Program-made: the position numbers and the translations under genes
Source: a virus
Lineage: Duplodnaviria; Heunggongvirae; Uroviricota; Caudoviricetes
Direction: 5' to 3' (one strand)
Virus record (IMG/VR): IMGVR_UViG_2734482569_000014
DNA: 40,719 nt
Notes under the pieces: generated by a model
The model's database searches: none
Seen by the model: only the letters and a program-made list of their open reading frames with translations
Told to the model about the DNA's origin: nothing
Shown: piece after piece, positions 2,545-39,167 of the stretch
Layout of the letters: each line of letters opens with the position of its first letter
Numbering within the stretch: position 1 is the first letter of the stretch

Positions 2545-5500
2545 TTAACATTCCCCCATCACGTCGCATATTTAACAGATTGCCCTGCACCCGCTGATCA
2601 ACCATCCCCATAAGTGCTTTTATTGCCTGAGGGCCAATCTCTCCATTCTGGCCGTCATTTTGAATAGTGATTTGGTATACAGGGGCATAGGTAATATCTC
2701 CGCCTCCATTACCACTTTTACTATTAATAGCTCTGACACCAAGAGAACCATCGGAAGTTCGTGTTAATGGCATAATGGCTTCCGGTCCAGCCTCACCAAA
2801 AACACCAGCCCCTTTTGCAAAAGCAAAAAATTGCGGGGAATCATAAATACCGTTCGAATACGTGCTCAATGACGGAGACTCATAAACACCGCCCTTTGCA
2901 TTCGGAATAAATTTACTAATAGCACTCCCGATAGTTCCTAAAATCCCCCCAGAAGAACTGTTACTAATGCTGTCGAAAATCCCAGTAATTGAAGCCTTTA
3001 ATGCTATTCGACTAAGATCCGAAATCACGGAAGTAGCGAAAGAACGAAAATTTGCCTTGCCTGTCGTGACAAAATCACCCAGCGCATCGGTCATCCCATC
3101 AAACATCTGAGTCGTGGTTGATTTTATCTGCTCACTGATATCCTTAGTGTCATCCAGCCAGTTATTGAATCCCTGGGAGGCACCACTAACCCAGTCTCCT
3201 GCCTGAATATCGAGCTGCTCGTTTTTCTGTCTGACAATTTCTTTTTCCCGTTCCAGAGCATCATTCAGAGCCTGCATTTTCTCTTGAAAAACATGATCTG
3301 ACATTCCACGGGATTTATCTGCATAGTCACGTTCAAGTTGCAGACGCTGATTGTTATATCCATGTTCAATCCGCAGTAATTCCTGCTGGCGTTGCTGATT
3401 TTTATCGCCAACCCCATAACCAGCAATCTGAATATCATACCCCTGCTGACGATTATCAATCGAAGCCTGCAATGAATCACGCCATGCTGTTATTTCGGCG
3501 GATTCCTTGATTAGCCTGTTATTTTTTTCAATCGCAACATTTTTCTCCATCAACGTGGTTATTTCTTCCCGGTGTAAGAGAAGCGATTTCTGATCCTGGG
3601 TTAATTTCGATGATGGTCGTGACTCTAGGTCGGCAATCCGCTGACGCCACTTAACCAGTTCCTGTTCAGAGGAACTTAATTTAACGGTCAACTCAGCTTG
3701 TGAACTTAGTAACGCATTCTGTTGATTCAGATGATCAATCATTCGTTGGGCTGCATCATCAGAATAACCTTTCGCCTTTGGTTGCTTTGGATCTTTATAA
3801 CGCTCATTTATTTGAGCGATAAGATTATTATATTCTTCCTTTGAATACTGATTCTTTAGCTTTTCCAGTTTTGCAAGTTCACTAGCTCTCTGCTGCTCCC
3901 GGGTCTGATATTGTTTTGAAAAGGCATCTGCTCTCTGTCTGAGTTCAATTCCTTCCTGTTGTCGCTTGTTGTAATCGTTTATTGATGAATTTAGTACGTC
4001 CTGAGCAATTTTTTCTGCTTGAAGTACGCCCAATTGCTGCTTTAATCGTGCCAGCCTTTTATTTTGAGCTCCGCCATCTCCAATGCCACCTAACCCGAAA
4101 ACTCCGGGTCGGGTATTTTTTTCTATTTCATCAATTTGACGGAGAACATCTGAGATTTTTTGATCAAGGGAGGCCTCACGGCCAATATCCAGCATGGAAT
4201 CCCATGCCCATTTTGCGGAGTCTGCGACAGCTTTCCATGCAGTCTCAAGATAACCAAGATTTTCTTTAATCTGGTTGGTGCGCTGGATCATTGAGGATGA
4301 GTATTCTTCTGTCGCAATGCGGGCGGCCTCCTGCTGGTTCCCTTCATCCTGTAGCGCCTTAATCTGGTTATAAGTCGCAAGTGTCAGAAAATGGTACTGA
4401 TCATTAAGTTTTGATATGGCACTGACAGGATCCTTTGCAATTTCATTGAAGTCATTAACCAGTTGTTCGGTTGATATTCCTGTTACTTCGCTCGTTTTTA
4501 CTATCGCTGTCGTCACTTGCTCCAGCGAACTGCTCGCTACCTTTCCCGAACGCACAAGCTGATTTAATACTGCCGCCGCAGCACCAGTTGTCGAATCAGC
4601 CGCATTCCCGGCACGTTGAGCTATATCGCCCAATTGCCCGCTGGTTGTCCCCAACTGATTTCCGGTAAGAATAAGAGATTTATTAAATTCGTCCTGCTCC
4701 TGAGAGCCTTTATAGTAAGCCAGTCCTAAGACCCCAACGGCTGCTGCGGCCAGGGTAAAAGGATTAATTAATCCCAGCACATAAGAACCTACACCTTTGA
4801 TCGCCGGGCCAATCCCACCGAACATATCTTTTAGCTGGCCGCCCTGCTGCATTAACACCATAAATGGCGACTGACCAGTGGACAACCCAACAACAATATC
4901 CGTCATTTGTACAGGCAACATGCGCATAGCAAAAGCCGTTTGTTTTGCCGACATTCCGGTTTTGCTTAATTGTGATTGAGTAACCTCAAGCTCACTCCGC
5001 ATAGCACGAAGTTTTCCAGAAAGCTCCTCATACATTTCAGGAGAAAGCATCCCCTTAGCTTTTGCTTCATTGAGCTGTTTCTGTTGTTCTACCAGACGAT
5101 TAAAAGCAGTTCCGACAGGATCAAGTTGAGCAATCAGACGTTGCAAAGCAACAACCTGTTCATCATGCGCTTTTGCTGCTTCTCGCTCTGCCTGAGCCTC
5201 TCCGGTAAGCTCTCGCCGTGTTTCCTGTATTTTTCGGCTATAATTCTCAAACTGAGAACCATTTATTTTCCCGGATGCAAACGCAGCATTAAGTTCATCA
5301 TGCTGTTGTTCAAGATTTCTTAGCGCCGCAGCCAGAGGGTCGATCTTGTCCAGCATTCTTTGAAAGGCCTGAGCCTGCGCTTCCTGCTGGGCGGCAGCAA
5401 GTTTTCCGGCCTTCTCGGCTTCTCTCTGCGCTTGCGCAACCCCGCTCAATTCCTCTGTGGTTTCATTAAGTTTACGGACAAGAAATTCATATTCTTCTTT

Positions 5501-5770
5501 ATCAATAAGCCCTTTATCGAAAAATTTCTTTAATTCAGAATAGCGTCGACCGACAGTATCAATTGCGGCACCAACTGGATCAATAGCTGCTTTTAATTTT
5601 GCGAGCGCGTTCTTCTCATCTTCTGTTGCCTTAGTCACTTTCCCTGCGCTATTTGCAGCAGTTTCCCCAGCCTGCGTCATTTTGACTAATGAGGAGGTCA
5701 GATTGTCAGCATTATTTTTCGCTCCAGTGCTATCAATAATTATTGCGAGACGCGAGGTTTGCTCTGCCAT
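2537..5770 (-). CDS. H: Tail tape measure protein
   Basis: 1077 aa, long coiled-coil-rich protein with hydrophobic glycine-rich central segment; position between chaperone G/GT and M. Confidence 0.9.
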
Positions 5771-5790
5771 TTATTAAAACTCCTGACAAC

Positions 5791-5815
5791 AAAAAACCCA
5801 CCGCGAAGTGGGTTT
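5791..5815 (-). terminator. Terminator-like GC hairpin with U-tract between GT and tape measure gene
   Basis: Minus-strand RNA reads AAACCCAC-UUCGCG-GUGGGUUUUUUG immediately upstream of the H ribosome binding site. Confidence 0.3.
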
Positions 5816-5935
5816 CAGGCGACATAATAGTAGATATAGCGATTACGAGGCCACGCAATGCTTTTCTCCAGGAGCATCATCGATTTAATTAAAGACACCA
5901 TCACATCTCTGTAACAGAGTGTACGTAATTAACAA

Positions 5936-6256
5936 CTACACACACTGCTCCTGAAAATACTGGTCATCCAGTGCAAAGATCACTGCTTCAAATTCATCGC
6001 GCTCAATCAATACCGGATGAGTGGCTAAATATTCATTTATCTCTGTCAGAGATAAAGGCAAAGGCACCCCAGCCATTCCAGCATAACGTCGGGCACGGGA
6101 TATTACCGAATAGGCGTACAACAACTCCTTAAGCACCGGGTCTATTTCTGGTTCCGGTATCGGTGGCAACCTGAGTTTTTCTCGCTTCCATCTTGCCTTT
6201 TCCCCCCTTTCTCCCCCGAACTCCGATAACCACCGCTGGGCAGCTATGGCTTTTTT
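5936..6256 (-). CDS. T-frame extension of tail assembly chaperone (C-terminal part of the GT -1 frameshift fusion)
   Basis: ORF 5936..6169 is in the -1 frame relative to G; reading that frame from the slippery site gives an open frame KKAIAAQRWLSEFGGERGEKARWKREKLR that runs into MPPIPEPEID...; canonical G/GT arrangement upstream of the tape measure gene. Confidence 0.6.
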   Translation of the reverse strand, partial: KKAIAAQRWLSEFGGERGEKARWKREKLRLPPIPEPEIDPVLKELLYAYSVISRARRYAGMAGVPLPLSLTEINEYLATHPVLIERDEFEAVIFALDDQYFQEQCV

Positions 6257-6705
6257 ATCGTATCCTGCTTCTGCTGCTCTTTACCCTGGGCGATGCTGGC
6301 TGCTTCTGCAAGGATCTGCCAGTACAACTCTGGATTCTGCTTAAGCAGCGCGATCCCTCGTTCTGCCGTATATTCCAGTGCAACCTCAACACCATTAACC
6401 AGTTCACCAACCCCTTTCCAGTCTTTCAGCAGATAACGAGCGGCATTATCAATGAGTAAATCATCAACAGAATCCACCTCGGAAACCTTTGAAATATCAA
6501 ACTCCTTCGTTCCGACGTGCAAACTGGCATCCATTTTCTCAATGTGGCGACGGATTAATGCATTACGGGAGCGATACTGATCGTTATCGCTGCTTGCCAC
6601 CAACAGTTTTAACCCGTCTACAGGTTTTAAGTCCTTCATTGGCGTAAACCAGCGTTCTCCACCAATGATAATTTTCTGATTAAGAATAAACATCCATAAC
6701 CTCAT
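6244..6705 (-). CDS. G: Tail assembly chaperone G
   Basis: 153 aa acidic protein immediately upstream of the tape measure gene; ends ...QKQDTIKKP with the slippery heptamer two codons before the stop. Confidence 0.7.
   Translation of the reverse strand: MRLWMFILNQKIIIGGERWFTPMKDLKPVDGLKLLVASSDNDQYRSRNALIRRHIEKMDASLHVGTKEFDISKVSEVDSVDDLLIDNAARYLLKDWKGVGELVNGVEVALEYTAERGIALLKQNPELYWQILAEAASIAQGKEQQKQDTIKKP
6250..6256 (-). promoter_or_regulatory. Programmed -1 ribosomal frameshift slippery heptamer A_AAA_AAG (G to GT)
   Basis: Minus-strand mRNA ...GAU ACG AUA AAA AAG CCA UAG; heptamer identical to the dnaX-type slippery site; the -1 frame is open into the T ORF. Confidence 0.6.
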
Positions 6706-18543: not shown

Positions 18544-20019
18544 TTAGGAGCGCCAAAAAAAACCTGAAAACAATATAATAACAGGATAAATTTCAAGGCG
18601 ACCAAGAATCATAGCTATGCACATTAAATATTTTGCAATGTCATTAAGCACTCCGAATGACGATGCAGTAGCCCCAAAACCTAATCCCATATTATTAATA
18701 CATGCAGCCACTGTTGCAAATGATGTAAGAAAATCATATCCCATACCATTTAACACCAGTATAAAAAACACCGTGAAGAGAGTATAAAGAAAAAAGAAAC
18801 TCCATACAGACCTCATTACACGATCTGTAACTATCTTCCCTCCTACATTTACACTCAACAACGCTCTGGGATGAGAAAGCTGATTTATCTCGTGTTTGCT
18901 TTGTTTGAAAAGTATAAGAAATCGAAGTGACTTAATTCCACCACAGGTTGAACCTATACATCCCCCAAAGAAACTTGACAACAGCAAAAACACTATCGTG
19001 TGCGTGGGCCAGTTTGCATAATCCTGCGTAGCTAAACCATTATCAGTGAGCATGGAGCTGGCAAGAAAAAACGAATGAATAAAACTTCCATGCAAGTCAT
19101 ACATACCTATATGCCAGACCTGGAAAGAGGTAACAATGATCACCCCTAAGGCTATTAACAGAAAGAAACGAAGTTCAATATCTCTGATTAAAGGTTTTAT
19201 CGTTTTTCTGCTAATAACAATATACCAAAGAGTGAAGTTGAAAGCCGATAGCAGGGAAAAAGAACCAGCCACCAGCTCAACCAAATAGTTATTAAAATAT
19301 CCGATACTCTCGCTATGAGTTGAGAAACCACCAAGCGAAACTGTGGAAATCCCGTGACAAATAGCATCAAACAAAGGCATTCCTGCAAGTCTATAACAGA
19401 CAATACAAGCAATACCTAATAAAGAATAAGTTATCCACAGTGTCCGTGACGTATCGGCCAGGCGGGGAGTGAGTTTGTCATCCTTAAATGGCCCCGGCAT
19501 TTCTGACTGATAAAGCTTTGCACCACCAATACCCAATAATGGCAATACTGCAACCGCCAGAACAATAACTCCTAAACCACCTATAAAATTTAACTGTGAC
19601 CGATAGTACAAATATGCCCGAGGTAATGAACTAACATCATCAATTACAGTTGCTCCTGTTGTTGTTATTCCAGAAACCCCTTCAAACAGAGCATCAATGA
19701 ACGTTAAATTAAGTTCTGAGTCAATCCATAAAGGGAATGCACTAATAACAGAAAACAAAATCCAAAACATTACAATTATAATAAACCCATCACGGGTACG
19801 TAATTGAATGCCAGATTTCTTAGTTGTATACCACGCTCCGCCACCAATGCAAAAAAATATAACGAAAGTTATAAAGAAAACGAACAGGCTTTTTTCTTTA
19901 TAAAACAATGCTACAACCATTGGTGGCAACATTGAAAGACTATAGAGCCAAACCAGGAACCCACACATATGAGTAACAACTCTTACATGAGATGTATTCA
20001 TATCTAAATATTCTTTCAA
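18544..20019 (-). CDS. trkG: TrkG/TrkH-family potassium uptake membrane protein
   Basis: 491 aa polytopic membrane protein directly after Rz/Rz1, the position trkG occupies in Rac; AT-rich upstream region. Confidence 0.8.
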   Translation of the reverse strand: MKEYLDMNTSHVRVVTHMCGFLVWLYSLSMLPPMVVALFYKEKSLFVFFITFVIFFCIGGGAWYTTKKSGIQLRTRDGFIIIVMFWILFSVISAFPLWIDSELNLTFIDALFEGVSGITTTGATVIDDVSSLPRAYLYYRSQLNFIGGLGVIVLAVAVLPLLGIGGAKLYQSEMPGPFKDDKLTPRLADTSRTLWITYSLLGIACIVCYRLAGMPLFDAICHGISTVSLGGFSTHSESIGYFNNYLVELVAGSFSLLSAFNFTLWYIVISRKTIKPLIRDIELRFFLLIALGVIIVTSFQVWHIGMYDLHGSFIHSFFLASSMLTDNGLATQDYANWPTHTIVFLLLSSFFGGCIGSTCGGIKSLRFLILFKQSKHEINQLSHPRALLSVNVGGKIVTDRVMRSVWSFFFLYTLFTVFFILVLNGMGYDFLTSFATVAACINNMGLGFGATASSFGVLNDIAKYLMCIAMILGRLEIYPVIILFSGFFWRS

Positions 20020-20138: not shown

Positions 20139-20615
20139 TTACTTTAAACACTGCTCGGTTATGTATTGCTGAGCACCTTCAAGTTGGGCCTGCATCATTA
20201 CCAGTCGTTCCCGGAGGGTGAAATAATCCCGTTCAGCGGTGTCTGCCAGTCGGGGGGAGGCTGCATTATCCACGCCGGAGGCGGTGGTGGCTTCACGCAC
20301 TGACTGACAGACTGCTTTGATGTGCAACCGACGACGACCAGCGGCAACATCATCACGCAGAGCATCATTTTCAGCTTTCGCATCAGCTAACTCCTTCGTG
20401 TATTTTGCATCGAGCGCAGCAACATCACGCTGACGCATCTGCATGTCAGTAATTGCCGCGTTCGCCAGCTTCAGTTCTCTGGCATTTTTGTCGCGCTGGG
20501 CTTTGTAGGTAATGGCGTTATCACGGTAATGATTAACAGCCCATGACAGGCAGACGATGATGCAGATAACCAGAGCGGAGATAATCGCGGTGACTCTGCT
20601 CATTGCTGCCCCCAC
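20139..20615 (-). CDS. Rz i-spanin
   Basis: 158 aa with N-terminal TM and coiled-coil; embedded Rz1 ORF in another frame; follows endolysin. Confidence 0.8.
20198..20383 (-). CDS. Rz1 o-spanin lipoprotein (embedded in Rz)
   Basis: 61 aa; lipobox VVGC, proline-rich PPPPPAW segment; entirely within the Rz gene in a different frame. Confidence 0.75.
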
Positions 20616-21097
20616 AAACAGACTTCACGCTCAATCTCACGACGGGTCATCAGCCCTTTCCATTGCTTACCGCCAGCATATGTCCAGCGACGTAGCTGAT
20701 CACATGCGCCTTTGATATCGCCCTGGTTTATTTTGCGAAGAAGCGTCGATGTTCTGAAATTGCCAGCACCCACGTTGTAAACGAATGAGTAAAGAGCGCC
20801 GCGCGTTGTTTCCGGTATATCGACTTTGATGTACGGGTTAATTTGTCTGGCGACAGTGGCAAGGTCTTTATTCAAGAGTGTTTTGCATTCTGCTTTGGTA
20901 TACGTTTTACCGAGCATGATGTCTTTTCCTGTATGCCCGTGACATACAGTCCATACACCAACAATATCTTTGTATGGTATGTAGCTGACACCTTCCAGAC
21001 CATCGTTACCACTTGGGCCAGTGATTAACACTGATGCTATAGCAATTGCTCCGCCACCAATAGCAGCAGCAACGACTTTTCGTAATGATGGAGGCAT
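20600..21097 (-). CDS. SAR endolysin (T4-lysozyme-like, phage 21 R-type)
   Basis: 165 aa; N-terminal weakly hydrophobic Gly/Ala-rich signal-anchor-release segment [16 protein letters not shown] followed by lysozyme-like domain. Confidence 0.85.
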
Positions 21098-21312
21098 TAT
21101 TCACCTCTCGCAGCCTTGCGCTTATCTTCTTTAATCTTGAAATAAAGGTTTGTCAGGTACGTCAGCAGGCCAAATACCAGACTACCCAGCACACCGATTG
21201 CAGCCCACTGTGACGGAGTTACTCTATCGAGCAACTGTAAAAACCAGTAGCCAGCACTGCCTGCGGAGGTGCCGTAGGCAATGCCTGTTGAAATTTTGTC
21301 CATGGATTTCAT
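21097..21312 (-). CDS. Pinholin (phage 21 S-type) with dual-start motif
   Basis: Likely start [14 protein letters not shown]... (two Met codons three codons apart) preceded by GGAGGTGAGG SD; 71 aa; track ORF extends upstream to 21369. Confidence 0.8.
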
Positions 21313-21416
21313 AGCCTCACCTCCGCACGGAACGGATGGCATAGTTATTATGTGTAGGCTTTCAGACACATCAATCAGAGCCTTAATTGATATATATGCT
21401 GGAGACGATGCAATAT

Positions 21417-21442
21417 AAAAAGCTCGCCGTAGCGAGCTAATA
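21417..21442 (-). terminator. Intrinsic terminator candidate between lipoprotein gene and holin
   Basis: Minus-strand RNA AGCUCGC-UACG-GCGAGCU followed by UUUUAUAUU; perfect 7-bp inverted repeat. Confidence 0.45.
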
Positions 21443-21563
21443 AAATGTATTTCTCTGATATTATGTTTATTTGTATTAGCTCAGACTTGACATCACAGGT
21501 TTCGTATATAGAACATCATCAAATCTGTCAGTTTGCTATGAATGAGATATAGTAATTGAAGAG

Positions 21564-21959
21564 CTAACCTCGCATGTCAAAGCCAGATTTCTGAAAATCT
21601 CTGTAGACTTCCGGATTGTTGAAGGCCGGAAATTTGGCTTTATGAGCTGCGGACTTTATCGCTTCGCAATAGGCTTTATCACCGTTACTGGTAGATATTT
21701 TTAACGCCGTGCCATCCTGAGAGAATTCCATATGCAACCTGCATTTTTTCCCTTTCCAGTTATGCGGCTCATCAAGTTTGGCATTAATTGCAGCTCTGAT
21801 TCCCCGCGCTTGCGCCCCCCATTCATCCTGATCATCCCAGCGTCCTGAACTGCAACTACCTGTAGCAGTAGTTTTGTGGCAATCTGAAGGGTGTAAAGGT
21901 GTGCATCCCGCAACAAAACCGACCCAAAAAGTCAACATAACGATTTTCTTTAATCCCAC
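21564..21959 (-). CDS. Lipoprotein with divergent TolA domain-III-like C-terminal module
   Basis: GTG start with GAGGAG SD; signal peptide plus lipobox FVAGC; C-terminal region shares the two-Cys pattern (GKKCRLHMEF...GDKAYCEAIK...PEVYRDF) with the paralogue at 22110..22538. Confidence 0.55.
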   Translation of the reverse strand: MGLKKIVMLTFWVGFVAGCTPLHPSDCHKTTATGSCSSGRWDDQDEWGAQARGIRAAINAKLDEPHNWKGKKCRLHMEFSQDGTALKISTSNGDKAYCEAIKSAAHKAKFPAFNNPEVYRDFQKSGFDMRG

Positions 21960-22109
21960 TTCTTGCTCCTCAATCCATTAAAATCTCAGCAATAGTAGTT
22001 GTTACGTCCGCCACTGGCTCAGAGCTGACTATCCGCTAAATTTAGCTCAGTGCCGTAGCTGTGTCAGAACAAACCTAAGCCGAAACCGTTTATTACAAAA
22101 CAATAAATA

Positions 22110-22538
22110 TCAGGGTTTAAAATCCAGCACCCCATTTTGAAATACTTTATATACTTCCGGCGAAGGGGGGGCAGGTATATCAGCATTCTTTATCGCATTC
22201 ATCGCTTCACGACATAAATCGAGGTCTCCACTTTCTCTTTTAACCTCCAGTAGAAGGCCATTCGGGGCCATATGCATTCTCAGTGTACACTCTTTTCCTG
22301 AATACTTACTCGCATCCCCGAACTGTTTTTCGATGGCGCTCTTGATTTGATGGGCATACAGACGGATATCCTCACTAACATCAGAAGTACGTTCAGATGA
22401 ACTCACATACTGTGTCTCTATTGCTTTATCGGAGTAATATGATGTACGGTCATGATAATTTGTCGATACAGCATCAGTGCACCCGATAATAATCCCACTA
22501 ATAATCAACGTAAGAATTGATGCGCTACGAAAACCCAT
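22110..22538 (-). CDS. Lipoprotein with TolA C-terminal domain (domain III)-like module
   Basis: Signal peptide plus lipobox IIGC; C-terminus YAHQIKSAIEKQFGDASKYSGKECTLRMHMAPNGLLLEVKRESGDLDLCREAMNAIKNADIPAPPSPEVYKVFQNGVLDFKP is near-collinear with the E. coli TolA C-terminal domain as I recall it. Confidence 0.7.
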   Translation of the reverse strand: MGFRSASILTLIISGIIIGCTDAVSTNYHDRTSYYSDKAIETQYVSSSERTSDVSEDIRLYAHQIKSAIEKQFGDASKYSGKECTLRMHMAPNGLLLEVKRESGDLDLCREAMNAIKNADIPAPPSPEVYKVFQNGVLDFKP

Positions 22539-22567
22539 TTTTCCTCACATATGTCATATAGTAAAGG

Positions 22568-22597
22568 ATTATATATACCGTTGTTTTGGACGCTCAA
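22568..22597 (-). promoter_or_regulatory. Candidate sigma70 promoter for the upstream lipoprotein gene
   Basis: Minus strand: -35 TTGAGC, 18-nt spacer, -10 TATAAT, about 30 nt upstream of the AGGAA SD and ATG at 22538. Confidence 0.35.
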
Positions 22598-23135
22598 ACA
22601 GCGAATCAGATCAAATAAAACGCACATTTGTTAACATTTACACAAAGTCTGCGTGGGATATTCTGAAAGAATATCCATAATGTGGAGAGAATCTATTGAA
22701 GTGCATGGTGCCGGGTGCCTCCCGGTGAACAAAATGTTCGTGATACCTGTCGGCGACAGAAAAGGTTAATGGTATCACCCCACCGCACAGGGGGATTCAC
22801 CATGCAGGAGTTTTCTTAGCAAACTCACTGCGCGCCCGGCAACTCCCAACCACATAAAATGCGGAGTTTGTGGCATTTATGCATATAACTCGCAGGAATT
22901 ATCTTAAAAAACTGATGTCGATCCGGATTAAAAAGAAGCAGGTCATCATCAGATGACTGGAAAAAAGGAAAACAAAAAATACTCATCATACAGTTTTGAT
23001 TGCAGGGATGAGCCTGCTATGCACAATATGCAGAATATAAGCAAGATAAAAATATGCAGGCATATTATTTCGGATCTTGTTATTAACACAACCTTTTTAA
23101 TAATCATTTGGCATACAATAAACCAGCCCAAAAAG

Positions 23136-23582: not shown

Positions 23583-24125
23583 TCAAGCCATTTTCTCAGC
23601 AAATGATTCACGCATGGGAATATATAGGGCATACTCAGCAACAGCTAACCAATTAGCAATCCGTTTTTCGCATGTGCTAAAACACCACTCTGGGTGTGCA
23701 TCATTTAGCAATTCAGCCATTTTGCGCTTAGTCATCCCCCGCCCTTCATAGCGTTGCCGGAGAATGCAAATCAATCCTGGATGCTCTGCCAGCACCTCAC
23801 TTATGACTCGATCAATACATAACGCCTCTGCATCAGTACAATGCGCCAGCCAGCTCTTTTGCTTGCCGTTGATCATCTCTCGCAAAAACGCTTCCAGCTC
23901 AGCTTTCTCTATTCCCGCTTTTTTCATTCTGCGCAGGGCTTCATTAATGGCTGTTTTCGTCAGTTTTTTGGATGCCAACAACTGATTGAACATATTCCCT
24001 GACCTGCCACCGCCAATATACGACCAGCGCCCCCACATACGTAGTTTTCCCTGAATCCAGACACTTTCCAGCGTGGTGAGGCGAAGGTGTTCTCCGCTTT
24101 TTCCTGTATTCGTTGGGTAAATCAT
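23583..24125 (-). CDS. Putative late antiterminator Q-like protein
   Basis: 180 aa ORF that is the last gene before the terminator and late-control gap upstream of the lysis cassette; assignment by position, family not verified. Confidence 0.4.
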   Translation of the reverse strand: MIYPTNTGKSGEHLRLTTLESVWIQGKLRMWGRWSYIGGGRSGNMFNQLLASKKLTKTAINEALRRMKKAGIEKAELEAFLREMINGKQKSWLAHCTDAEALCIDRVISEVLAEHPGLICILRQRYEGRGMTKRKMAELLNDAHPEWCFSTCEKRIANWLAVAEYALYIPMRESFAEKMA

Positions 24126-26240: not shown

Positions 26241-26783
26241 GGTTCTACATTGACAGGAGACTTCAACCATAAGAAGTAATCTGAATACTTGAGCAATAAA
26301 TTTACTTAAGATTAATGAGCGCACCTTGCCGGACAAAGATAAACCAAGGTAACACCTTTTTTCTAGCCAGTATGTAATCAATCAGAAAGCCGCTCCATAA
26401 GAACAACAGCAAGACAATAAATTGCCATTACAGCCGCAATAGCCAGCGCACATTTGAGAACCAGCACGACAACCCCCTGTATTAGACGCACACCAGTCCT
26501 GATAAATATGAGGCTGTCTCGTCAGTGATTCAATACAACTATTGGGTATAGTTTCTGTGATTTTATTCTGTAGAAATGGAACACAACAACCAGTCACCAC
26601 CAGCACTTCCTTAAATGCTCTAAGTCAGAAACAAGCCAACATTTTAGTCCGCTTTGAGCGATCTGCAGACATTGCTAGCAGCCTTCTGTGTGAATTCTCA
26701 GGGAGCAGGTCGGCATAGCATCACGTTGAGGCTCTTACCCTACTTGTTCACACCAACCCTAACTCCACAGACTGATTCATAAA

Positions 26784-27785
26784 TTAGTAATCTGCGTGTT
26801 TCGCACTTTTCAGAAATGCTTTCATATTTTCATTAGGTCGCTCAATTTCGAAGTTACTTCCATATAACTCTTGTAATTTTGGCCATAACTTACTTAATAA
26901 CCCTCTCCTGCGATAAAATGGATGTATCCAAACGGTAGATAGGTACGGAGAATTTGCATTTGAATTGTTTATTGTGACCAGCCCAACTAAACATTGTCGA
27001 TAACCACTATTATCCATTGATTGTATTTCTTCGACGAATGGATACGCGATTACATCAGTCCAACCATGATCGGTTGTATCCCATTGCATTCCGTCATGAC
27101 ATTCCTTCGACTGATAGCGGCGTAAAGCTACACACGCGAGCTTTTGCCAATCTGGAGAATTAATTGTGATCTCTTCATCGTATGACGCGCCTATTGGAGC
27201 GGGTATTGGTCTGATTAATCCAGCATGGCATTCATCATAGAACTTCATGTTTCCCTCAGAAACGTTGTGTACGTTGGGTTGCTCCATGTGTGCGCCATTC
27301 AAAAATAGCTCTGATAGTAGTGTATCTACACTGTAATCTTTATTGATTATTGTCGGCTTAGAGTTTTTCTTATTAAGGCCGCGAGTAACGATTTTTTGAT
27401 CAATGTTAACAACATGGAATAATCCGTCGGGGAGGCTAGCGAACCACGATGGGGCATCGGACCAGAATAGCATGCCTTTTGTACTTCTTAAGAGTTTAAT
27501 TAAGTTAATACAAGCTTCTTCACTAGTCTTGCCGTTGATGCGAAGTATGTTAGGACTAAAGTAATATTCATCCATATCAGGGAATGCAGCTTCGCAAAAC
27601 TCCTGTACATAATTTAGCACCTGGATTCTACAGAGATCATCATAGCTGGTAATAACTAAGGGGGTATCTTCATTACTATTATGATTATCAATAATGCAAT
27701 CTATAGCGAGACTTACTGCTTTGCGTATCACTTCAGTTGAATCTAACGACTCTAAAAATTTTGTCTTTCGTGTGCGAATATCCAT
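26784..27785 (-). CDS. Two-domain protein with C-terminal GNAT acetyltransferase-like domain
   Basis: 333 aa; C-terminal VWIHPFYRRRGLLSKLW resembles the GNAT acetyl-CoA-binding motif; N-terminal about 240 aa unassigned; AT-rich codon usage. Confidence 0.5.
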   Translation of the reverse strand: MDIRTRKTKFLESLDSTEVIRKAVSLAIDCIIDNHNSNEDTPLVITSYDDLCRIQVLNYVQEFCEAAFPDMDEYYFSPNILRINGKTSEEACINLIKLLRSTKGMLFWSDAPSWFASLPDGLFHVVNIDQKIVTRGLNKKNSKPTIINKDYSVDTLLSELFLNGAHMEQPNVHNVSEGNMKFYDECHAGLIRPIPAPIGASYDEEITINSPDWQKLACVALRRYQSKECHDGMQWDTTDHGWTDVIAYPFVEEIQSMDNSGYRQCLVGLVTINNSNANSPYLSTVWIHPFYRRRGLLSKLWPKLQELYGSNFEIERPNENMKAFLKSAKHADY

Positions 27786-27800
27786 GTATGACCTGCGCTA

Positions 27801-28823
27801 TTAAAATTCATGAATGAACGGTTTGTCATCTGGTTGCAAAATGGTGGTTTTATTCGTTGCTACATTTAAACTGTTGTAGAGCATAATTGCCAGGTTCGAT
27901 GCATTTTCAATCAGCGTTTCAAGATCCTGGTCTGTAATCACTACGAGGTTCCCTTCTTTATCCTTTCCACCACGATGCACTAAGTGATTTCGATTGAGGG
28001 TTGCCAATTCAATAGCTTCTATCGGACAGTCTTTTTGTACTTTTATATCGAATGTAGCTTCATAGCGGTCGATTACCTTTTTAGTGCTATGCCAGCTTGC
28101 ACTGATCAAGTGTTCCTTGATTGACCTGATTAGCTCTCCCCTAATTTTCTCGATGGGTTCACCCTTGAAAGGCAACGCAGCAATATCTTTGCTTACTTTA
28201 AATTCAGTCTTACCTTTTTCTATACAATTGGCTATGTAGACATCATCTTTCTCTATAGAATTAATGAATAGCTCAACATAAAGCGTTTCCAAAGCTGTAA
28301 TAACATTCGTGTAGAGCAAACTAAGCAAGTGGTTTTTTTGCTGTTGTTCAGTTTTATCTTTTGCAAGTTTTTTTATTTTATCGATATTATCAATGAATTT
28401 TAAATACGGATTACCGGAAGACGTTACAGCGTCGTAGATATCATCATCGTACCAATCATCTATATTATTTGAGTTTCCAGACCAGTCAAAACATTGTGTT
28501 TGTAATTCATCTACTAATTCCTCAATATACTCAGATTTAACATATTGACCGAAGATGGATTGTAGTTCTTCGCTCGCATCATACGGCCCGCCATATATGT
28601 AAGCATAGCCACCTTCTCTACTTTCATACGGACAAGCATTTGCCGGATCTTCAAAGTTTTCAAAGAACCAGTTTTTCATTACTTCGAGTTGATCTTTTTT
28701 GCTTATGTATTTTAAAGATTTTAGTGGAACTTTCTTTCCATTAACCTCGAAAACAATTTTCACGATGTAACGCTCCCTTGTATCAATTGCGCAACTATTA
28801 TACCACAGCGAAATACAGGGCAT
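27801..28823 (-). CDS. HEPN-motif protein (candidate RNase, Abi-like)
   Basis: Likely start MPCISLWYN with AAGGAGG SD (track ORF begins upstream at a GTG, 28892); C-terminal LNRNHLVHRGG fits the R-x4-H HEPN signature; AT-rich; 15 nt upstream of the GNAT gene on the same strand. Confidence 0.45.
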   Translation of the reverse strand: MPCISLWYNSCAIDTRERYIVKIVFEVNGKKVPLKSLKYISKKDQLEVMKNWFFENFEDPANACPYESREGGYAYIYGGPYDASEELQSIFGQYVKSEYIEELVDELQTQCFDWSGNSNNIDDWYDDDIYDAVTSSGNPYLKFIDNIDKIKKLAKDKTEQQQKNHLLSLLYTNVITALETLYVELFINSIEKDDVYIANCIEKGKTEFKVSKDIAALPFKGEPIEKIRGELIRSIKEHLISASWHSTKKVIDRYEATFDIKVQKDCPIEAIELATLNRNHLVHRGGKDKEGNLVVITDQDLETLIENASNLAIMLYNSLNVATNKTTILQPDDKPFIHEF

Positions 28824-28961
28824 AACCTGCCTCCTTAAACTAACATACCATGAGCCAGCAATGTCCGCTATTGGCACAAAGCGGACAACCACGCTAGCTC
28901 TCCCCTGTGCCAGAAAAATGTCAATTTACATATGAACTAATGCTCTTTGATCTAGTAACGT

Positions 28962-29393
28962 CTATAAATACCGAAGATTTCCTTGATAAAATGCCAGTAC
29001 ACGTTTCATAACTTCACTCTTCCGGCACTCGCGACAGATTATGTTCTGACGCCTGTCATAGCGGCGTATTTCTCCGTCTGGTAATGACCAGATAAGGTCA
29101 GGATCAACCACAACCGTTTTTTTCACCTTTGCCCTGGATAGTTTTTTGCGGGCGTTTTTCCAATCCTTACGAGCCTGTTCAGACGGGAATAACCCATAGC
29201 CAGAGTTGTATACATCGCCACTGGCAACCAACTCTCTGGCAAGAATGCTCATCAGATATCTTGTCGCACCTGTCTTGGCCTCCAGTTGCCTTAACGTCTC
29301 GCGCCCACTCTGGCGTACCAACTCAACAACCTGCTCCTTAATTTTTTCACGCTCTTCCTGTGTAAAAACTTTTGCCATAAGCGCCTCCGGCAA
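28962..29393 (-). CDS. Hypothetical early-operon protein
   Basis: 143 aa lysine/arginine-rich ORF with C-terminal CRECR pair; no family recognised. Confidence 0.35.
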   Translation of the reverse strand: MPEALMAKVFTQEEREKIKEQVVELVRQSGRETLRQLEAKTGATRYLMSILARELVASGDVYNSGYGLFPSEQARKDWKNARKKLSRAKVKKTVVVDPDLIWSLPDGEIRRYDRRQNIICRECRKSEVMKRVLAFYQGNLRYL

Positions 29394-30206
29394 TCACTTT
29401 TCCGACACAATACGACTGGAGGAATCGACAATCTGTCGGACAATATCCCGGTGCTTGTTCAGCTCCCGCAGCGCGGCGCAGACTCGCTCCCACTTCTGGA
29501 CATGATTTTTCGCCCGACGCAGTTCGCGGTTTGCCATATGCAGCGATGGTAAAACTAGGTCATCCGCTTGCGTTTCAGTAAACGATGGCAGCGACTGCAC
29601 AATGTCCGCCACAGTTTCTGTTTTAATATCTTCCTGTGTTGCCGCTTCCTGTACTGGTAACGCAACACCGGCTGGCTGAGGAAAGGCTTTACCATCAGTT
29701 TCCGCTACCGATGCAGCTTTCGGCTCTGCTGGTAAATTATCGCCCGGCATGCAGTAACGAAATTTACTGTTCTGGTTTACGCGAATCAGGCGTCCTTTGC
29801 TGATTGCCATTGCCAGCGTTGAAGCAACTTTGCGGGATGTTGTACCGAACAGCGTAGCCAGTTCATCCGCCGTTTGTGGTCCGCGTTGTTCAATCGTCGC
29901 GGTTAAATCGCACTCTGAGATTTTCACTACAGTTGCCGTGGTGGTTTCTTCCGGCAGTTCTGCCTGCATTGGCTGTTCCTGCTGAACGTTGTTATCAGCC
30001 ACACGCCAGGTGTACGCGCTTTTATCAACGAAACCAGCTTTTTTCAGTTCCCATAGTTCGTTCAGCACTTCTTCACGACTGATATCAAGTCGCGCAGCAA
30101 GTTCTATGGATGTGGCTTTTCCCATTGCTTTCAGTGCGTCAAAAACAGTCTCCATAAAAATTTCCTCCCGGTAAAAATTACTTCTCAATTCCTGGCTGGA
30201 CGACAT
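29394..30206 (-). CDS. YdaW-like hypothetical protein (possible winged-helix N-terminus)
   Basis: 270 aa ORF downstream of the DnaC-like gene; true start may be the internal [11 protein letters not shown]. Confidence 0.4.
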
Positions 30207-30924
30207 TCGGACGCCAGCTCTCCCAGTTAAAATTCACCCATCGCCCGCCGTTCATGGTCATGCGATCCATAATCCGCTCGCCGAGCAATGTTTTCATGGC
30301 CTCATAGTTCAGGTTTGTCAGCATCCCCACGCTGCGCATCGACGCTGTCCGGCGATCAACAATCTGGTGCAGCACCACCTGCTCGTTTTTCGTCTCGCGC
30401 TGAATGCCAATTTCATCAAGAACCAGCAGATCCACTTCGCATAGTTCCCGCAAAAATTTTTCGCCTGACTGCCCATCGTCATAGCTGGCGTGCAGGGCAC
30501 TCATAACATCAGCCACGGTAACCACAATCACTGTCTGACCGTCTTTCAGCAGGCGATTCCCGATAGCTGCCGCTAAGTGGTTCTTCCCGGTACCAGGTTT
30601 TCCGCTGAACGCAAAATTTGTACACCCGGTCATCAGTTCATCAGCGATGGATTTCGCCTGACTCAACGCGTATCGCTGCGCTTCGTTCTGCACCTGGTAA
30701 TTCGAAAACGAGCATTTGCGGTGCAATGGCTGGATGCCAGAGCGATTCAGAATTTTTTCCACCCGCAACTGACGATTCTGACGGTTGATCTCCTCACAAC
30801 GTTTCTGGCCTTCGGAAAGTTGCCACTCGCGCCACTCCGCTACCGTCTTGAATGGCGCGGTTACATGTGACGGGGCCAGTCTGCGGATACGTTCAAGAAC
30901 GTCGCCTGTCGCAATATTTTTCAT
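30178..30924 (-). CDS. ydaV: DnaC/IstB-like replication helicase loader
   Basis: Walker [16 protein letters not shown] and Walker B LLVLDEIG; follows the O-like gene. Confidence 0.85.
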
Positions 30925-30930
30925 GGTCAG

Positions 30931-31788
30931 TTACCCCCTGAAGCCTGGCGGGATCGCACTATCCGGTAACGAGACGGTGTTAACCTGTCGGAGTAACGTC
31001 TCAGGTCGAACACCTTTCGGCGCGAACAAGCCCTGGTATTCATTGGCGATGCTGTGTCGAATCACCTGCTCAGGTGAAAAACCCTGCTGGCGGAATTTTT
31101 CCAGCTCCCGTATCGCCCCGTTAGCGCCCTGCTCCGTTCGAATCGGTTTTCGCAATGCCTGGCGAAATTCAACCCACTCACGCCAAAGCGAGACAGAAAT
31201 CCAGTTCGGCAAAGCAATATCCAGAGGGTCAAACTTTTTGACACCTCGATTCCCCCGGGGGGGATTTAGGGGGGGATCTGTTTTTAGATCTTTATCTGTA
31301 TCTTTATTAGTTGCCTTTGTGTTGACATCATGTTCAAACACCACTTCAACATCTGTTTGAACACCTGTTAAATTTCTCTCTTGTTTTGTTTGAACATCTG
31401 CTTCCTTTCTGCTTCTTCTGGCCTGAACAGATGCTTTTCCTGCGGCTGATTTTTTGGTTAATTTTTCCCTGACTGATGCCAGATCTTCCTCAATCCGAAG
31501 ATGCACCCATTCCTCGCCGTTATCGCAAAAAAACTCCTGCAAGGATGGTTCAACATCAGCCCATCGCTCGTTAGTCAGACGGGCAATTTTTGCCAGCCTG
31601 TTTTTAGGTATTGGCTTTCCTGTTTGCCAGTAATTGAACATCAGCAACAAATACGCACCATGCTCCTCTGCTGACAAATGCATGGTGTCAGCCAGGTAAT
31701 CAGCTATGTACAGTTGCATGTATGGTAATGCGGCCATAATTGCCCCGTATGATGCTGCCCGGTGGCTTAGAATAAGCACAAACAGCAT
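30931..31788 (-). CDS. ydaU: Replication initiation O-like protein (YdaU-like)
   Basis: 285 aa; position between YdaT-like and DnaC-like genes; same length as Rac YdaU as recalled. Confidence 0.65.
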   Translation of the reverse strand: MLFVLILSHRAASYGAIMAALPYMQLYIADYLADTMHLSAEEHGAYLLLMFNYWQTGKPIPKNRLAKIARLTNERWADVEPSLQEFFCDNGEEWVHLRIEEDLASVREKLTKKSAAGKASVQARRSRKEADVQTKQERNLTGVQTDVEVVFEHDVNTKATNKDTDKDLKTDPPLNPPRGNRGVKKFDPLDIALPNWISVSLWREWVEFRQALRKPIRTEQGANGAIRELEKFRQQGFSPEQVIRHSIANEYQGLFAPKGVRPETLLRQVNTVSLPDSAIPPGFRG

Positions 31789-31800
31789 GGAAACTTTTGC

Positions 31801-32223
31801 TTAATGAACAATGACAGAATCGTCGGAAGACCCGCCGCCGCTGAAATGCGCTTTCCGGTAAACGGCTTGGACTGCATCATCATGCGCATCAATTGCCGTA
31901 CTTAACGCTTCCTGCGCCGCCAGTAATGCACGGCGTTCCAGGGTATCGAAGATGCAGAGTCGGTGACGCAGCTCGCGCGGAAGGATTGCCAGAATTGCTG
32001 GGATCAGCTTCTGAATTTTTTCTCTTTGCGTTTTCGTTTCACCTTTCAACCAACGGTGATAGATATTCTGCTGATTATTCCAGTCCTTGCCTGGTACCAG
32101 GGGCAATTCGCCGCCCCCCTGGCGCAGATATTCTTCAGTAATGGCATTGGCTACCCATGCCTGCCCTTTTTCGGCTGCCAGGGCTAACAACACTGACTCG
32201 ATGTGCTCATGCTTGATTTTCAT
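31801..32223 (-). CDS. ydaT: YdaT-like protein
   Basis: 140 aa, same length and position as Rac YdaT (downstream of cro-like ydaS). Confidence 0.65.
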   Translation of the reverse strand: MKIKHEHIESVLLALAAEKGQAWVANAITEEYLRQGGGELPLVPGKDWNNQQNIYHRWLKGETKTQREKIQKLIPAILAILPRELRHRLCIFDTLERRALLAAQEALSTAIDAHDDAVQAVYRKAHFSGGGSSDDSVIVH

Positions 32224-32474
32224 GAATCAACTCCCATCAGCTTTTTCGTAGTAGTTTTATTTCTGCCAATAGTTAAAATTACATCAGCAGAAAATAATCC
32301 GTTTGATGCATGAGCGATTTTTTCAGCGTAATTTGTTTCGCCGGTATATTCTGTGCGAGGCAATTTTCCGTTATCCATCCATTTGTAGATTGCTCTTTGG
32401 CTGACACCACAAACGTCGGCCACAACAGAAACGCGAACAGTTTTGATTACATCTTCAAGTGTTTTCTGGTTCAT
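32220..32474 (-). CDS. ydaS: Cro-like HTH regulator (YdaS-like)
   Basis: Likely start MNQKTLEDVIK; HTH segment CGVSQRAIYKWMDNGKLP; divergent from racR. Confidence 0.6.
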   Translation of the reverse strand: MNQKTLEDVIKTVRVSVVADVCGVSQRAIYKWMDNGKLPRTEYTGETNYAEKIAHASNGLFSADVILTIGRNKTTTKKLMGVDS

Positions 32475-32481
32475 ATCACCC

Positions 32482-32533
32482 TCACAATGTGAACTTTGAG
32501 TACATGCTATAACAGAACTGACAGTACATTCAA
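32482..32533. promoter_or_regulatory. Immunity-region operators and divergent promoter region
   Basis: Palindrome TCACAATGTGA (32482..32492); AGTACAT copies at 32499..32505 and 32523..32529; minus-strand promoter -35 TTGAAT (32528..32533), -10 TATAGC (32506..32511). Confidence 0.35.
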
Positions 32534-32535
32534 GA

Positions 32536-32973
32536 GTGAATATCATTGAACTTATGGTTCATGAAGATAAAGCGCGTAAAGAGTTCGCCAGTAGGCTTGC
32601 GCTAGCCTGTGAAAACGCTGGTTATGAACAACATGGAAGGCAGGCAGAAATTGCCCGTCGAATGAAATTAACACCAAAAGCGGTTAGCAAATGGTTTAAT
32701 GGCGAAACAATTCCTCGCCGAGAGAAATTAAGGGAATTAGCAACACTCATTGGAACAACACCAACCTATCTTTTGGGAGAGGATACAGAAGAAAGTGGAC
32801 AGGTACGTTTCTATCAGGAGTTAAATCCAAGACAAAAAATCATCATTGACCTTCTGGACGAGCTCCCTGACAGTGAGACAGATGAACTTTTAAAAACTCT
32901 TGAGGAGAAAAAACAGAAGTACAATGCAATTTACGAAGAGCTAGCACGAAAGAAAAAACAAAAAGCCTCTTAA
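32536..32973 (+). CDS. racR: CI-like repressor (XRE-family HTH), RacR-like
   Basis: HTH segment QAEIARRMKLTPKAVSKWFNGETIP; divergent to cro-like gene; position as in Rac. Confidence 0.7.
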   Translation: MNIIELMVHEDKARKEFASRLALACENAGYEQHGRQAEIARRMKLTPKAVSKWFNGETIPRREKLRELATLIGTTPTYLLGEDTEESGQVRFYQELNPRQKIIIDLLDELPDSETDELLKTLEEKKQKYNAIYEELARKKKQKAS

Positions 32974-38966: not shown

Positions 38967-39167
38967 ATGGAGGTGTTCATGTATAAAATTACCGCCACTA
39001 TTGAAAAGGAAGGTGGCACTCCTACTAACTGGACAAGATATTCAAAATCTAAACTAACGAAATCAGAATGCGAAAAAATGCTCTCAGGTAAAAAAGAAGC
39101 AGGCGTTTCCAGAGAGCAGAAAGTAAAACTGATAAATTTTAATTGCGAGAAACTTCAGTCCTCGTGA
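38967..39167 (+). CDS. ydaC: YdaC-like small protein
   Basis: MEVFMYKITATIEKEGGTPTNW...; track ORF extends upstream to 38907 inside ralR in another frame. Confidence 0.5.
   Translation: MEVFMYKITATIEKEGGTPTNWTRYSKSKLTKSECEKMLSGKKEAGVSREQKVKLINFNCEKLQSS

Follow-up and report, generated by a model that had tools for sequence, protein, structure and literature searches.

Paired prophage lipoproteins carrying the TolA domain III fold: possible decoys for Tol-dependent colicins and filamentous phages

Two tandem lipoprotein genes

The IMG/VR virus record IMGVR_UViG_2734482569_000014 (Duplodnaviria; Heunggongvirae; Uroviricota; Caudoviricetes) is a DNA of 40,719 nucleotides (nt), hereafter called the window, and is a Rac-like lambdoid prophage of E. 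coli. Between its Q-like antiterminator gene and its holin gene, the window contains two tandem genes, termed here A and B, whose products are predicted lipoproteins with a C-terminal domain homologous to domain III of the host protein TolA (TolAIII). Positions given below are those of the window, unless stated otherwise.

Gene A: 22110..22538, minus strand; 142 amino acids (aa), a complete open reading frame (ORF) with ribosome-binding site, signal peptide and lipobox
Gene B: 21564..21959, minus strand; 131 aa; the start codon is GTG, with AGGAG 6 nt ahead of it

The A protein begins with MGFRSASILTLIISGIIIG followed by C, in which a signal peptide (aa 1-19) with a basic n-region and a hydrophobic core leads to the lipobox IIG/C (aa 17-20; Cys20 at 22479..22481). 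The +2 residue is Thr, and a disordered linker (aa 21-53) connects the lipid-bearing end with TolA domain III (aa 54-142; 22113..22379). The ribosome-binding site GAGGA is located 5 nt ahead of the ATG. The B protein begins with MGLKKIVMLTFWVGFVAG followed by C and has a signal peptide of the same organization (aa 1-18), the lipobox VAG/C (aa 16-19; Cys19 at 21903..21905), Thr at +2 and TolA domain III at aa 44-131 (21567..21830). The start assigned to B in RefSeq (product WP_001348108.1) is shorter; the GTG start is favoured here because homologues of B all carry the n-region '(V/I)KKIVML', with its conserved KK. The lipobox was called at the pattern level, as [LVI][ASTVI][GAS]C within ~35 residues of the start, and both proteins combine it with a basic n-region and a hydrophobic core. 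As the +2 residue is Thr and not Asp, the +2 rule of E. coli predicts sorting of A and B to the outer membrane.

A and B are 29% identical (E 2e-18), indicating that they are paralogues. B-type proteins conserve an extra Cys-x8-Cys pair (C27 and C36; 21852..21881, minus strand) between the lipid-bearing cysteine and the domain. The surrounding linker is nearly invariant among them, PLHPSxCHKTTATGSCSSGRWDDQDEWG (also in P0170, P0177, P0181 and P0185), and is modelled by AlphaFold with low confidence.

Homology to TolA domain III

Pfam family PF06519 (96 model positions; gathering cut-off, 25 bits) matches A with 82.6 bits (E 2.4e-23; aa 49-140, model positions 4-96) and B with 54.6 bits (E 1.3e-14; aa 44-125, model positions 10-92). 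In phmmer comparisons with the TolAIII chains of the PDB (1S62, 3QDP, 2X9A and 1TOL), A gives E ~5e-28 over aa 55-142 and B gives E ~5e-9. Identity to E. coli TolAIII is ~60% for A and ~32% for B. The conserved cysteine pair of TolA (C363 and C388) corresponds to C84/C109 in A and C73/C98 in B, in columns that are invariant across both families. These results confirm that the homology of A and B to TolA domain III is far beyond chance.

In AlphaFold2 models, the cores of A and B have confidence values (pLDDT) above 90, whereas the N-terminal 38-50 residues are below 50. Foldseek comparison with the PDB places the A model on 2x9a_B with a root-mean-square deviation (rmsd) of 0.6 Å over 88 columns (TM 0.96), and the B model on 3qdp with an rmsd of 1.1 Å over 83 columns (TM 0.89). 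As modelled, A and B share the TolAIII fold (α-β-β-α-α-β) and are superposable on the solved structures.

The initial annotation, which was made from the sequence of the window, had described two paralogous minus-strand genes, each with a lipobox (IIGC and VAGC), of which the A product was nearly collinear at its C-terminus with TolA's C-terminal domain, including both cysteines, and the B product was the more divergent copy. Each of these points agrees with the ORFs, sequence patterns, profile matches and identities given above, and the Foldseek comparison with TolA domain III structures that it had proposed yielded matches for both proteins.

The homology is restricted to domain III. NCBIfam model NF007065 (TolA, 387 positions) is matched at positions 293-386 only, with scores of 107.8 for A and 53.7 for B against a cut-off of 213, and neither match spans the full length of TolA, which begins with a membrane anchor and includes a long helical domain II. 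With TIGR02794, A reaches 75.6 against a cut-off of 59.45 through its C-terminal domain alone, and B remains below at 47.2. The genes also do not lie in a tolQRA-tolB-pal-cpoB operon. At the position of A, RefSeq has only an 87-codon 'tolA pseudogene, missing N-terminus' (L001 20711..20971, corresponding to 22110..22370 of the window). This call by the RefSeq/PGAP pipeline is probably a consequence of the C-terminal domain exceeding the tolA cut-off of TIGR02794 on its own, and it leaves an intact, conserved lipoprotein gene discarded as a pseudogene, without a RefSeq protein record, in the genomes examined.

Among the TolA-like proteins retrieved, none is closer to the A domain than E. coli TolA (60%); hence a recent capture of the domain cannot be demonstrated. 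A also shows a weak match to TonB_2 of Pfam.

The lipoprotein family and its annotation

An exhaustive profile search retrieved 590 cluster representatives at E ≤ 1e-3. Among the best 150 of these, 96 are of 170 aa or less, and at least 55 of the 96 carry a strict lipobox. Named family members occur in Klebsiella, Enterobacter, Serratia and Dryocola, with domain-level names throughout; others lie next to capsule genes or on a contig of phage-like character. As judged from these sequences, lipoprotein-anchored TolAIII is a large uncharacterised family, which appears to keep the β3 ligand-binding strand (see below).

Both A and B belong to PHROGs family phrog_5772 (E 1.6e-62 and 6.7e-65, respectively), which is labelled 'unknown function', and the RefSeq name of B is 'cell envelope integrity TolA C-terminal domain-containing protein'; these labels cover the proteins but assign no function. 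Thus, the TolA homology of such proteins is already visible to annotation pipelines, and it is their function that is new ground. The searchable literature yielded no functional study and no account of the lipoprotein architecture or its spread; the sole trace is a table row that records 'TolA protein, hypothetical protein' in a strain-variable phage region of 1,355 bp (PMC6854850). A published 32-fold induction by ciprofloxacin of a prophage gene named 'TolA' in EDL933 was considered and dropped, as the gene proves to be a tail fibre.

All 80 related viral contigs carry an identical gene B, and 78 of them have the 142-aa ORF of A intact. Alleles of the A family at 65-74% identity have a different signal peptide (MYCRAVPVLVLILASLTTG followed by C), retaining the L-T-x-G-C lipobox, the length (140-142 aa) and the domain; within the A family, the N-terminal part has diverged more than the domain. 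Gene A includes a run of seven C (22165..22171, minus strand; codons for a PAPPSP segment). The database variants P0010 (158 aa) and P0015 (157 aa; 15 member sequences) are frameshifted in this run and consequently lack the last helix and the β3 ligand strand. The frameshifts could reflect sequencing error, decay or an on/off switch.

Ligand-binding surfaces

Strand β3 of TolA (A415-K420) is the β-augmentation site for g3p-N1 of filamentous phages, colicin N (ColN) and the N-terminus of TolB, and the TolA substitutions D418P or K420P abolish binding of all three (PMC4339652). The dissociation constants (Kd) of TolAIII are ~1 µM for ColN and g3p and ~40 µM for TolB, with a range of 40-200 µM across species (PMC4339652; PMC7391070). 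Colicin A uses the face opposite β3, L375-P380 together with K368, K379 and K396 (PMC3365938).

Alignment to TolAIII shows that β3 is unchanged in A: L417-D418-F419-K420-P421 are all present, in the C-terminal strand VLDFKP. In B, the strand is altered to GFDMRG. Of the colicin A lysines, A keeps K379 and K396 and has His in place of K368, whereas B has Glu, Ser and His at the three positions and thus keeps none.

Conservation of β3 was compared between the 55 lipoprotein representatives and 51 long TolA-like proteins. The frequencies are 0.62 and 0.63 for L417, 0.65 and 0.35 for D418, 0.80 and 0.98 for F419, and 0.47 and 0.51 for K420, respectively. The strand is thus about as conserved as in TolA-like proteins, with D418 more so, suggesting that the ligand strand is under selection in the family. 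This pattern would fit mimicry of TolA and does not indicate which ligand matters.

Genomic setting and transcription signals

The flanking gene order was taken from a complete E. coli genome (strain ECCHD184) that matches the 1.3-kb cassette segment of the window (21400..22700) at 100%. From the integrase side, this prophage carries intR, xisR, ralR, recT, recE, kilR and sieB, then replication genes, a transporter cargo islet, hokD, DUF1367, a YbcO-type nuclease gene and the Q-like gene, followed by A and B, holin, lysozyme and Rz/Rz1 genes, trkG, and head and tail genes. The prophage is defective at least in ECCHD184, since its tail tape-measure gene is truncated and adjoins an IS5-family transposase. 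The Rac prophage of K-12 is not known to carry the cassette region. The features bordering and accompanying the two genes in the window are as follows.

23583..24125, minus strand: Q-like late antiterminator, upstream border of the slot (Pfam DUF1133, 2.5e-107; Phage_antitermQ, 26.1 bits; phrog_753, 'anti-termination protein Q-like')
22649..22835, minus strand: STnc100-family prophage small RNA (sRNA), directly upstream of A (Rfam RF02076, 86.6 bits; gathering score, 47)
22597..22568, minus strand: σ70-like promoter candidate for A, TTGAGC, 18-nt spacer and TATAAT (10 of 12 matches in a consensus scan)
21411..21438, minus strand: hairpin resembling an intrinsic terminator, AGCTCGC-TACG-GCGAGCT then TTTTATATT, in the gap between B and the holin gene
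21097..21369, minus strand: P21-type holin S, downstream border of the slot (Pfam PF04971)
20600..21097: lysozyme, after the holin (Pfam PF00959)
20139..20615: Rz (Pfam PF03245)
20198..20383: Rz1 (Pfam PF06085)

Pfam and PHROG searches of the flanks thus place A and B on the same strand as the late genes, in the slot between Q and the lysis genes. The G+C content is 0.42 in A and 0.46 in B, compared with 0.47-0.53 in Q, S, R and Rz and a window mean of 0.46. The -10 hexamer of the promoter candidate ends ~30 nt upstream of the ATG of A. The sRNA upstream of A may stand on its own or belong to a leader of A; STnc100 has been related to PasD sRNAs in a 2026 preprint.

Mobility and distribution

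Of 5426 complete E. coli genomes, 773 (14%) contain the 1.3-kb segment with both genes at ≥99% identity. Phage mEp460_ev081, which is laboratory-evolved and is the one record among 50,697 phage records that carries either gene, shares with the window only 21096..22826, at 96.9% identity. This common segment comprises the holin gene, the terminator-like hairpin with its T-run (21438..21421), B, A and the sRNA region. As Q and lysozyme of mEp460_ev081 differ from those of the window, the segment has moved between lambdoid backbones. The 5' end of the sRNA coincides with the edge of the segment (22826).

A diverged A allele without B occupies the Q-to-holin slot of a prophage with accessory genes of the Stx-phage type (nanS-p-like esterase, DUF1378 and DUF826). 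The stx genes of Stx phages occupy that slot. At loci L091-L093 (~3636..6429), the diverged allele follows a TfpB-domain gene and a gene for an AraC-type regulator, downstream of a PF03589-type Q; at L093 it is followed by the nanS-p-like esterase, DUF1378, DUF826 and holin genes.

B homologues are distributed more widely. Copies of ~87% identity are present on ~600 plasmids. In all three IncK2/Z (MPF_I) plasmids examined, the homologue lies 67 nt downstream of the relaxase gene nikB on the same strand (L003 6004..6435; L099 and L100 3504..3935), a placement as if in the oriT/relaxase operon. On the pO157-type plasmid p86-24-1 (L002 6003..6434), a homologue is flanked by a hok-type toxin gene and toxB. 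Citrobacter amalonaticus and Serratia marcescens have stand-alone chromosomal copies with 82-84% DNA identity, and Enterobacter encodes a homologue of 86% protein identity at a fixed housekeeping locus. In a comparison of four loci (plasmid, Citrobacter and Serratia), the DNA ceases to resemble the window within ~35 nt of the B ORF on each side. The S. marcescens homologue (L087 6001..8736) adjoins GmrSD_N (DUF262) and HEPN-domain genes, a pairing typical of defence islets. A scan of IMG/VR yielded near-identical copies only and no new contexts, and the viral structures of BFVD gave no fold match at E ≤ 1e-3.

As for the setting, the initial annotation had placed the genes between Q and the lysis genes, with a promoter-like site upstream and a hairpin downstream, and had regarded them as an autonomous moron. 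The position agrees with the Q-like gene on one side and the holin, lysozyme, Rz and Rz1 genes on the other, and both signals are present as candidates. The moron interpretation is strengthened by the segment common to mEp460_ev081, by the diverged A allele in the Stx-type prophage and by the variable region recorded in PMC6854850: the genes lie in a slot between conserved phage modules and vary in presence among related phages. Its description of the genes as prophage lipoproteins holds in that both are in a prophage, but is too narrow for B, which also resides on plasmids and chromosomes, and for the architecture, which is that of a large family. The functions that it had suggested, a decoy or an effect on outer-membrane integrity, are plausible.

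A possible decoy function

These features are most readily combined in a tentative model, the chances of which are put at slightly less than even, that A and B are TolAIII decoys tethered to the outer membrane and directed against Tol-dependent colicins and filamentous phages. We infer that the proteins would be expressed in the lysogen, localize to the outer membrane, bind ligands there and confer a protective phenotype. As outer-membrane lipoproteins, they would present a free TolAIII on a flexible tether of 25-35 residues just beneath the outer membrane. As they lack TolA domains I and II, they would have no coupling to the TolQR motor. Ligands needing TolAIII for import would be trapped unproductively where they enter, making the lysogen or plasmid host tolerant; these would include g3p N1 of filamentous phages and the epitopes by which group A colicins and related Tol-dependent bacteriocins bind TolA. 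The two paralogues would probably broaden the ligand range, A copying β3 exactly and B having an altered strand.

Several observations argue for this model. Both proteins combine the sequence and fold of TolAIII with its disulfide cysteines, and β3 is unchanged in A and about as conserved in the lipoproteins as in TolA-like proteins. A is intact and B is identical across nearly all or all of the related contigs, and the cassette is maintained at ≥99% identity in the genomes counted above. The lipobox is retained in alleles whose signal peptides otherwise differ, and the sequences include no transmembrane helix or domain II. Given a Kd of ~1 µM for the invaders and ~40 µM (40-200 µM) for TolB, a modest amount of decoy should trap the former more readily than TolB. 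The stand-alone chromosomal B homologues and the plasmid copies suggest that the function is independent of lysis. Overproduction of periplasmic TolAIII was reported, by Levengood-Freyermuth and colleagues in 1993, to cause colicin tolerance and resistance to Ff phages, and periplasmic g3p, the converse competitor, is said to have led to such tolerance in work of Boeke and colleagues in 1982.

In structure 2X9A, TolAIII is bound by g3p of phage If1. If infection by If1 proceeds via I-type conjugative pili, a plasmid that creates susceptibility to If1 also carries a putative decoy, and the location of the B homologue behind the relaxase operon of I-type (MPF_I) transfer plasmids is suggestive in this respect. 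A wider generalization, held with more doubt than the model for A and B, is that lipoprotein-anchored copies of the TolA tip constitute a widespread, hitherto unrecognised class of periplasmic receptor-mimic immunity, which would intercept g3p of filamentous phages and the translocation domains of Tol-dependent bacteriocins and by which conjugative plasmids might cancel the filamentous-phage susceptibility that their own pili bring. The carriers of such a class would include Rac-like and Stx-like prophages, I-complex and F-type plasmids including pO157, and many Enterobacterales chromosomes.

Other observations weigh against the decoy model. As β3 is also the TolB site, its conservation would be expected of a TolB binder as well as of a decoy. 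The ligand of B may be none of the known ones, given the loss of the three colicin A lysines and the changed β3. Orientation with Q and holin may mean that A and B are expressed mainly late in the lytic cycle. The consensus scans for the promoter and hairpin give counts slightly above background (11 found against 7.2 expected from shuffled sequence, and 4 against 2.7), so both signals stay candidates, and the promoter candidate has no conserved counterpart at the diverged A alleles, whose upstream regions do not align usefully. A TolAIII copy could impose an envelope cost. PADLOC has no model or match for A or B. The Enterobacter copy, at one conserved place among housekeeping genes, also fits an ordinary physiological role.

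Alternative explanations

The late-operon position and the TolB site together support a different function, which is judged rather unlikely but is the foremost of the alternatives: A and B may modulate the Tol-Pal system. In this case, the tethered TolAIII copies would occupy the disordered N-terminal region of TolB at the outer membrane, in competition with genuine TolA; TolB-Pal would be dissociated less, less Pal would be on the cell wall and the outer membrane would be loosened. The outcome might be more vesicles in the lysogen, or help to the spanins in rupturing the outer membrane when the Q-dependent late promoter reads through. TolB uses β3 (PMC4339652), a strand that A has unaltered and that the family conserves, and regulation of vesicle production by modulating TolB interactions has been raised in a review of Tol-Pal (PMC7391070). 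A and B are placed in the late operon, with Q and holin on either side and in the same orientation, the holin gene is part of what mEp460_ev081 has in common with the window, and the fixed Enterobacter copies are what a physiological role would give. However, the affinity of TolA for TolB is weak (40-200 µM), so that much protein would be needed for competition, and a leaky envelope of the tol type is costly, yet the cassette is kept at ≥99% identity in 14% of complete E. coli genomes, and in a prophage that is defective at least in ECCHD184. Also, the plasmid and chromosomal copies have no nearby lysis genes, the terminator-like hairpin separates B from the holin gene, and other accessory genes stand between the diverged A allele and holin.

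It is improbable, more so than Tol-Pal modulation, that A and B use the scaffold common to TolAIII and the TonB C-terminal domain to bind some other partner, such as an outer-membrane protein, a plasmid transfer component or the entry protein of another mobile element, their resemblance to the TolA ligand site being structural only. This possibility is raised chiefly by B, which is only ~32% identical to TolAIII, has the changed β3 strand and none of the colicin A lysines, and carries a conserved Cys-x8-Cys and a nearly invariant linker that would be unexpected for a passive tether; its gene lies directly behind the relaxase operon in IncK2/Z plasmids. The weak TonB_2 match of A is in line with it as well. 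On the other hand, A at 60% identity is closer to E. coli TolAIII than to any other protein retrieved, conservation across the family tracks TolA, β3 included, and the contexts examined have no candidate partner gene in common.

The idea that A and B are decaying, functionless fragments of a captured tolA gene, which would accord with the RefSeq mark on A as an incomplete tolA, with a TIGR02794 score that A owes to its C-terminal 98 residues and with the frameshifts of some A variants in the C run, is largely refuted and highly improbable, as A has a full ORF with ribosome-binding site, signal peptide and lipobox, is intact in nearly all of the loci, has alleles of 65-74% identity that retain length, lipobox and domain, conserves its domain more than its N-terminal part, and shares its architecture with 55 or more clusters formed at 50% identity.

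Comparison with known systems

A and B share with TolA domain III (TolA ~334-421; PF06519; 1S62, 3QDP, 1TOL and 2X9A) the fold, the disulfide cysteines and core residues, and A also shares an identical LDFKP strand. They differ from TolA in having a lipoprotein signal and a short disordered tether instead of the transmembrane domain I and the helical domain II, and in being encoded on prophages, plasmids and genomic islets instead of the tol-pal operon.

Small outer-membrane lipoproteins that give exclusion or host protection include Cor of phi80 and N15, Llp of T5, TraT of the F plasmid and Bor of lambda. Like these, A and B are small accessory lipoproteins of temperate phages or conjugative plasmids that would act protectively at the inner face of the outer membrane. 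Cor, Llp, TraT and Bor bind or mask a receptor (FhuA, OmpA) or give serum resistance, and none of them is known to copy a host receptor domain, whereas the mode proposed for A and B is mimicry of a periplasmic co-receptor; a sequence relationship was neither found nor expected. The periplasmic TolAIII and Ff g3p competitors reportedly work on the same principle, in which a free copy of one partner blocks productive import, with a leaky envelope as the side effect. Those are laboratory constructs or the phage's own protein, whereas A and B represent a natural, lipid-anchored mobile family.

TolA domain III is a common entry hub of group A colicins and filamentous phages and is key to outer-membrane stability. 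If the decoy model is correct, A and B would represent a new form of host protection by prophages and plasmids, acting through receptor mimicry rather than masking, and would help to explain strain differences in sensitivity to colicins and to M13 and If1. It would also bear on colicin- and phage-based antimicrobials against E. coli, including O157 strains, as pO157 carries a copy, and would provide natural TolAIII variants for mapping which surface binds which ligand. If instead A and B tune Tol-Pal, they would be the first regulators of this system encoded by mobile elements.

Other features of the prophage

No tRNA genes are present in the window. The cargo islet of the early region, between hokD and the replication genes (~26356..32606; L001 24957..31207), has genes for two transporters, of the MFS and BCCT types, and for a gamma-glutamylcyclotransferase, a LysR regulator and a DUF2254 protein. 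The RalA antitoxin sRNA lies beside ralR (38985..39163, minus strand; Rfam RF02694, 225 bits), as expected for Rac. In the late region, trkG (18544..20019, minus strand) has a G+C content of 0.377, compared with 0.47-0.53 in its neighbours, which is consistent with a foreign insertion.

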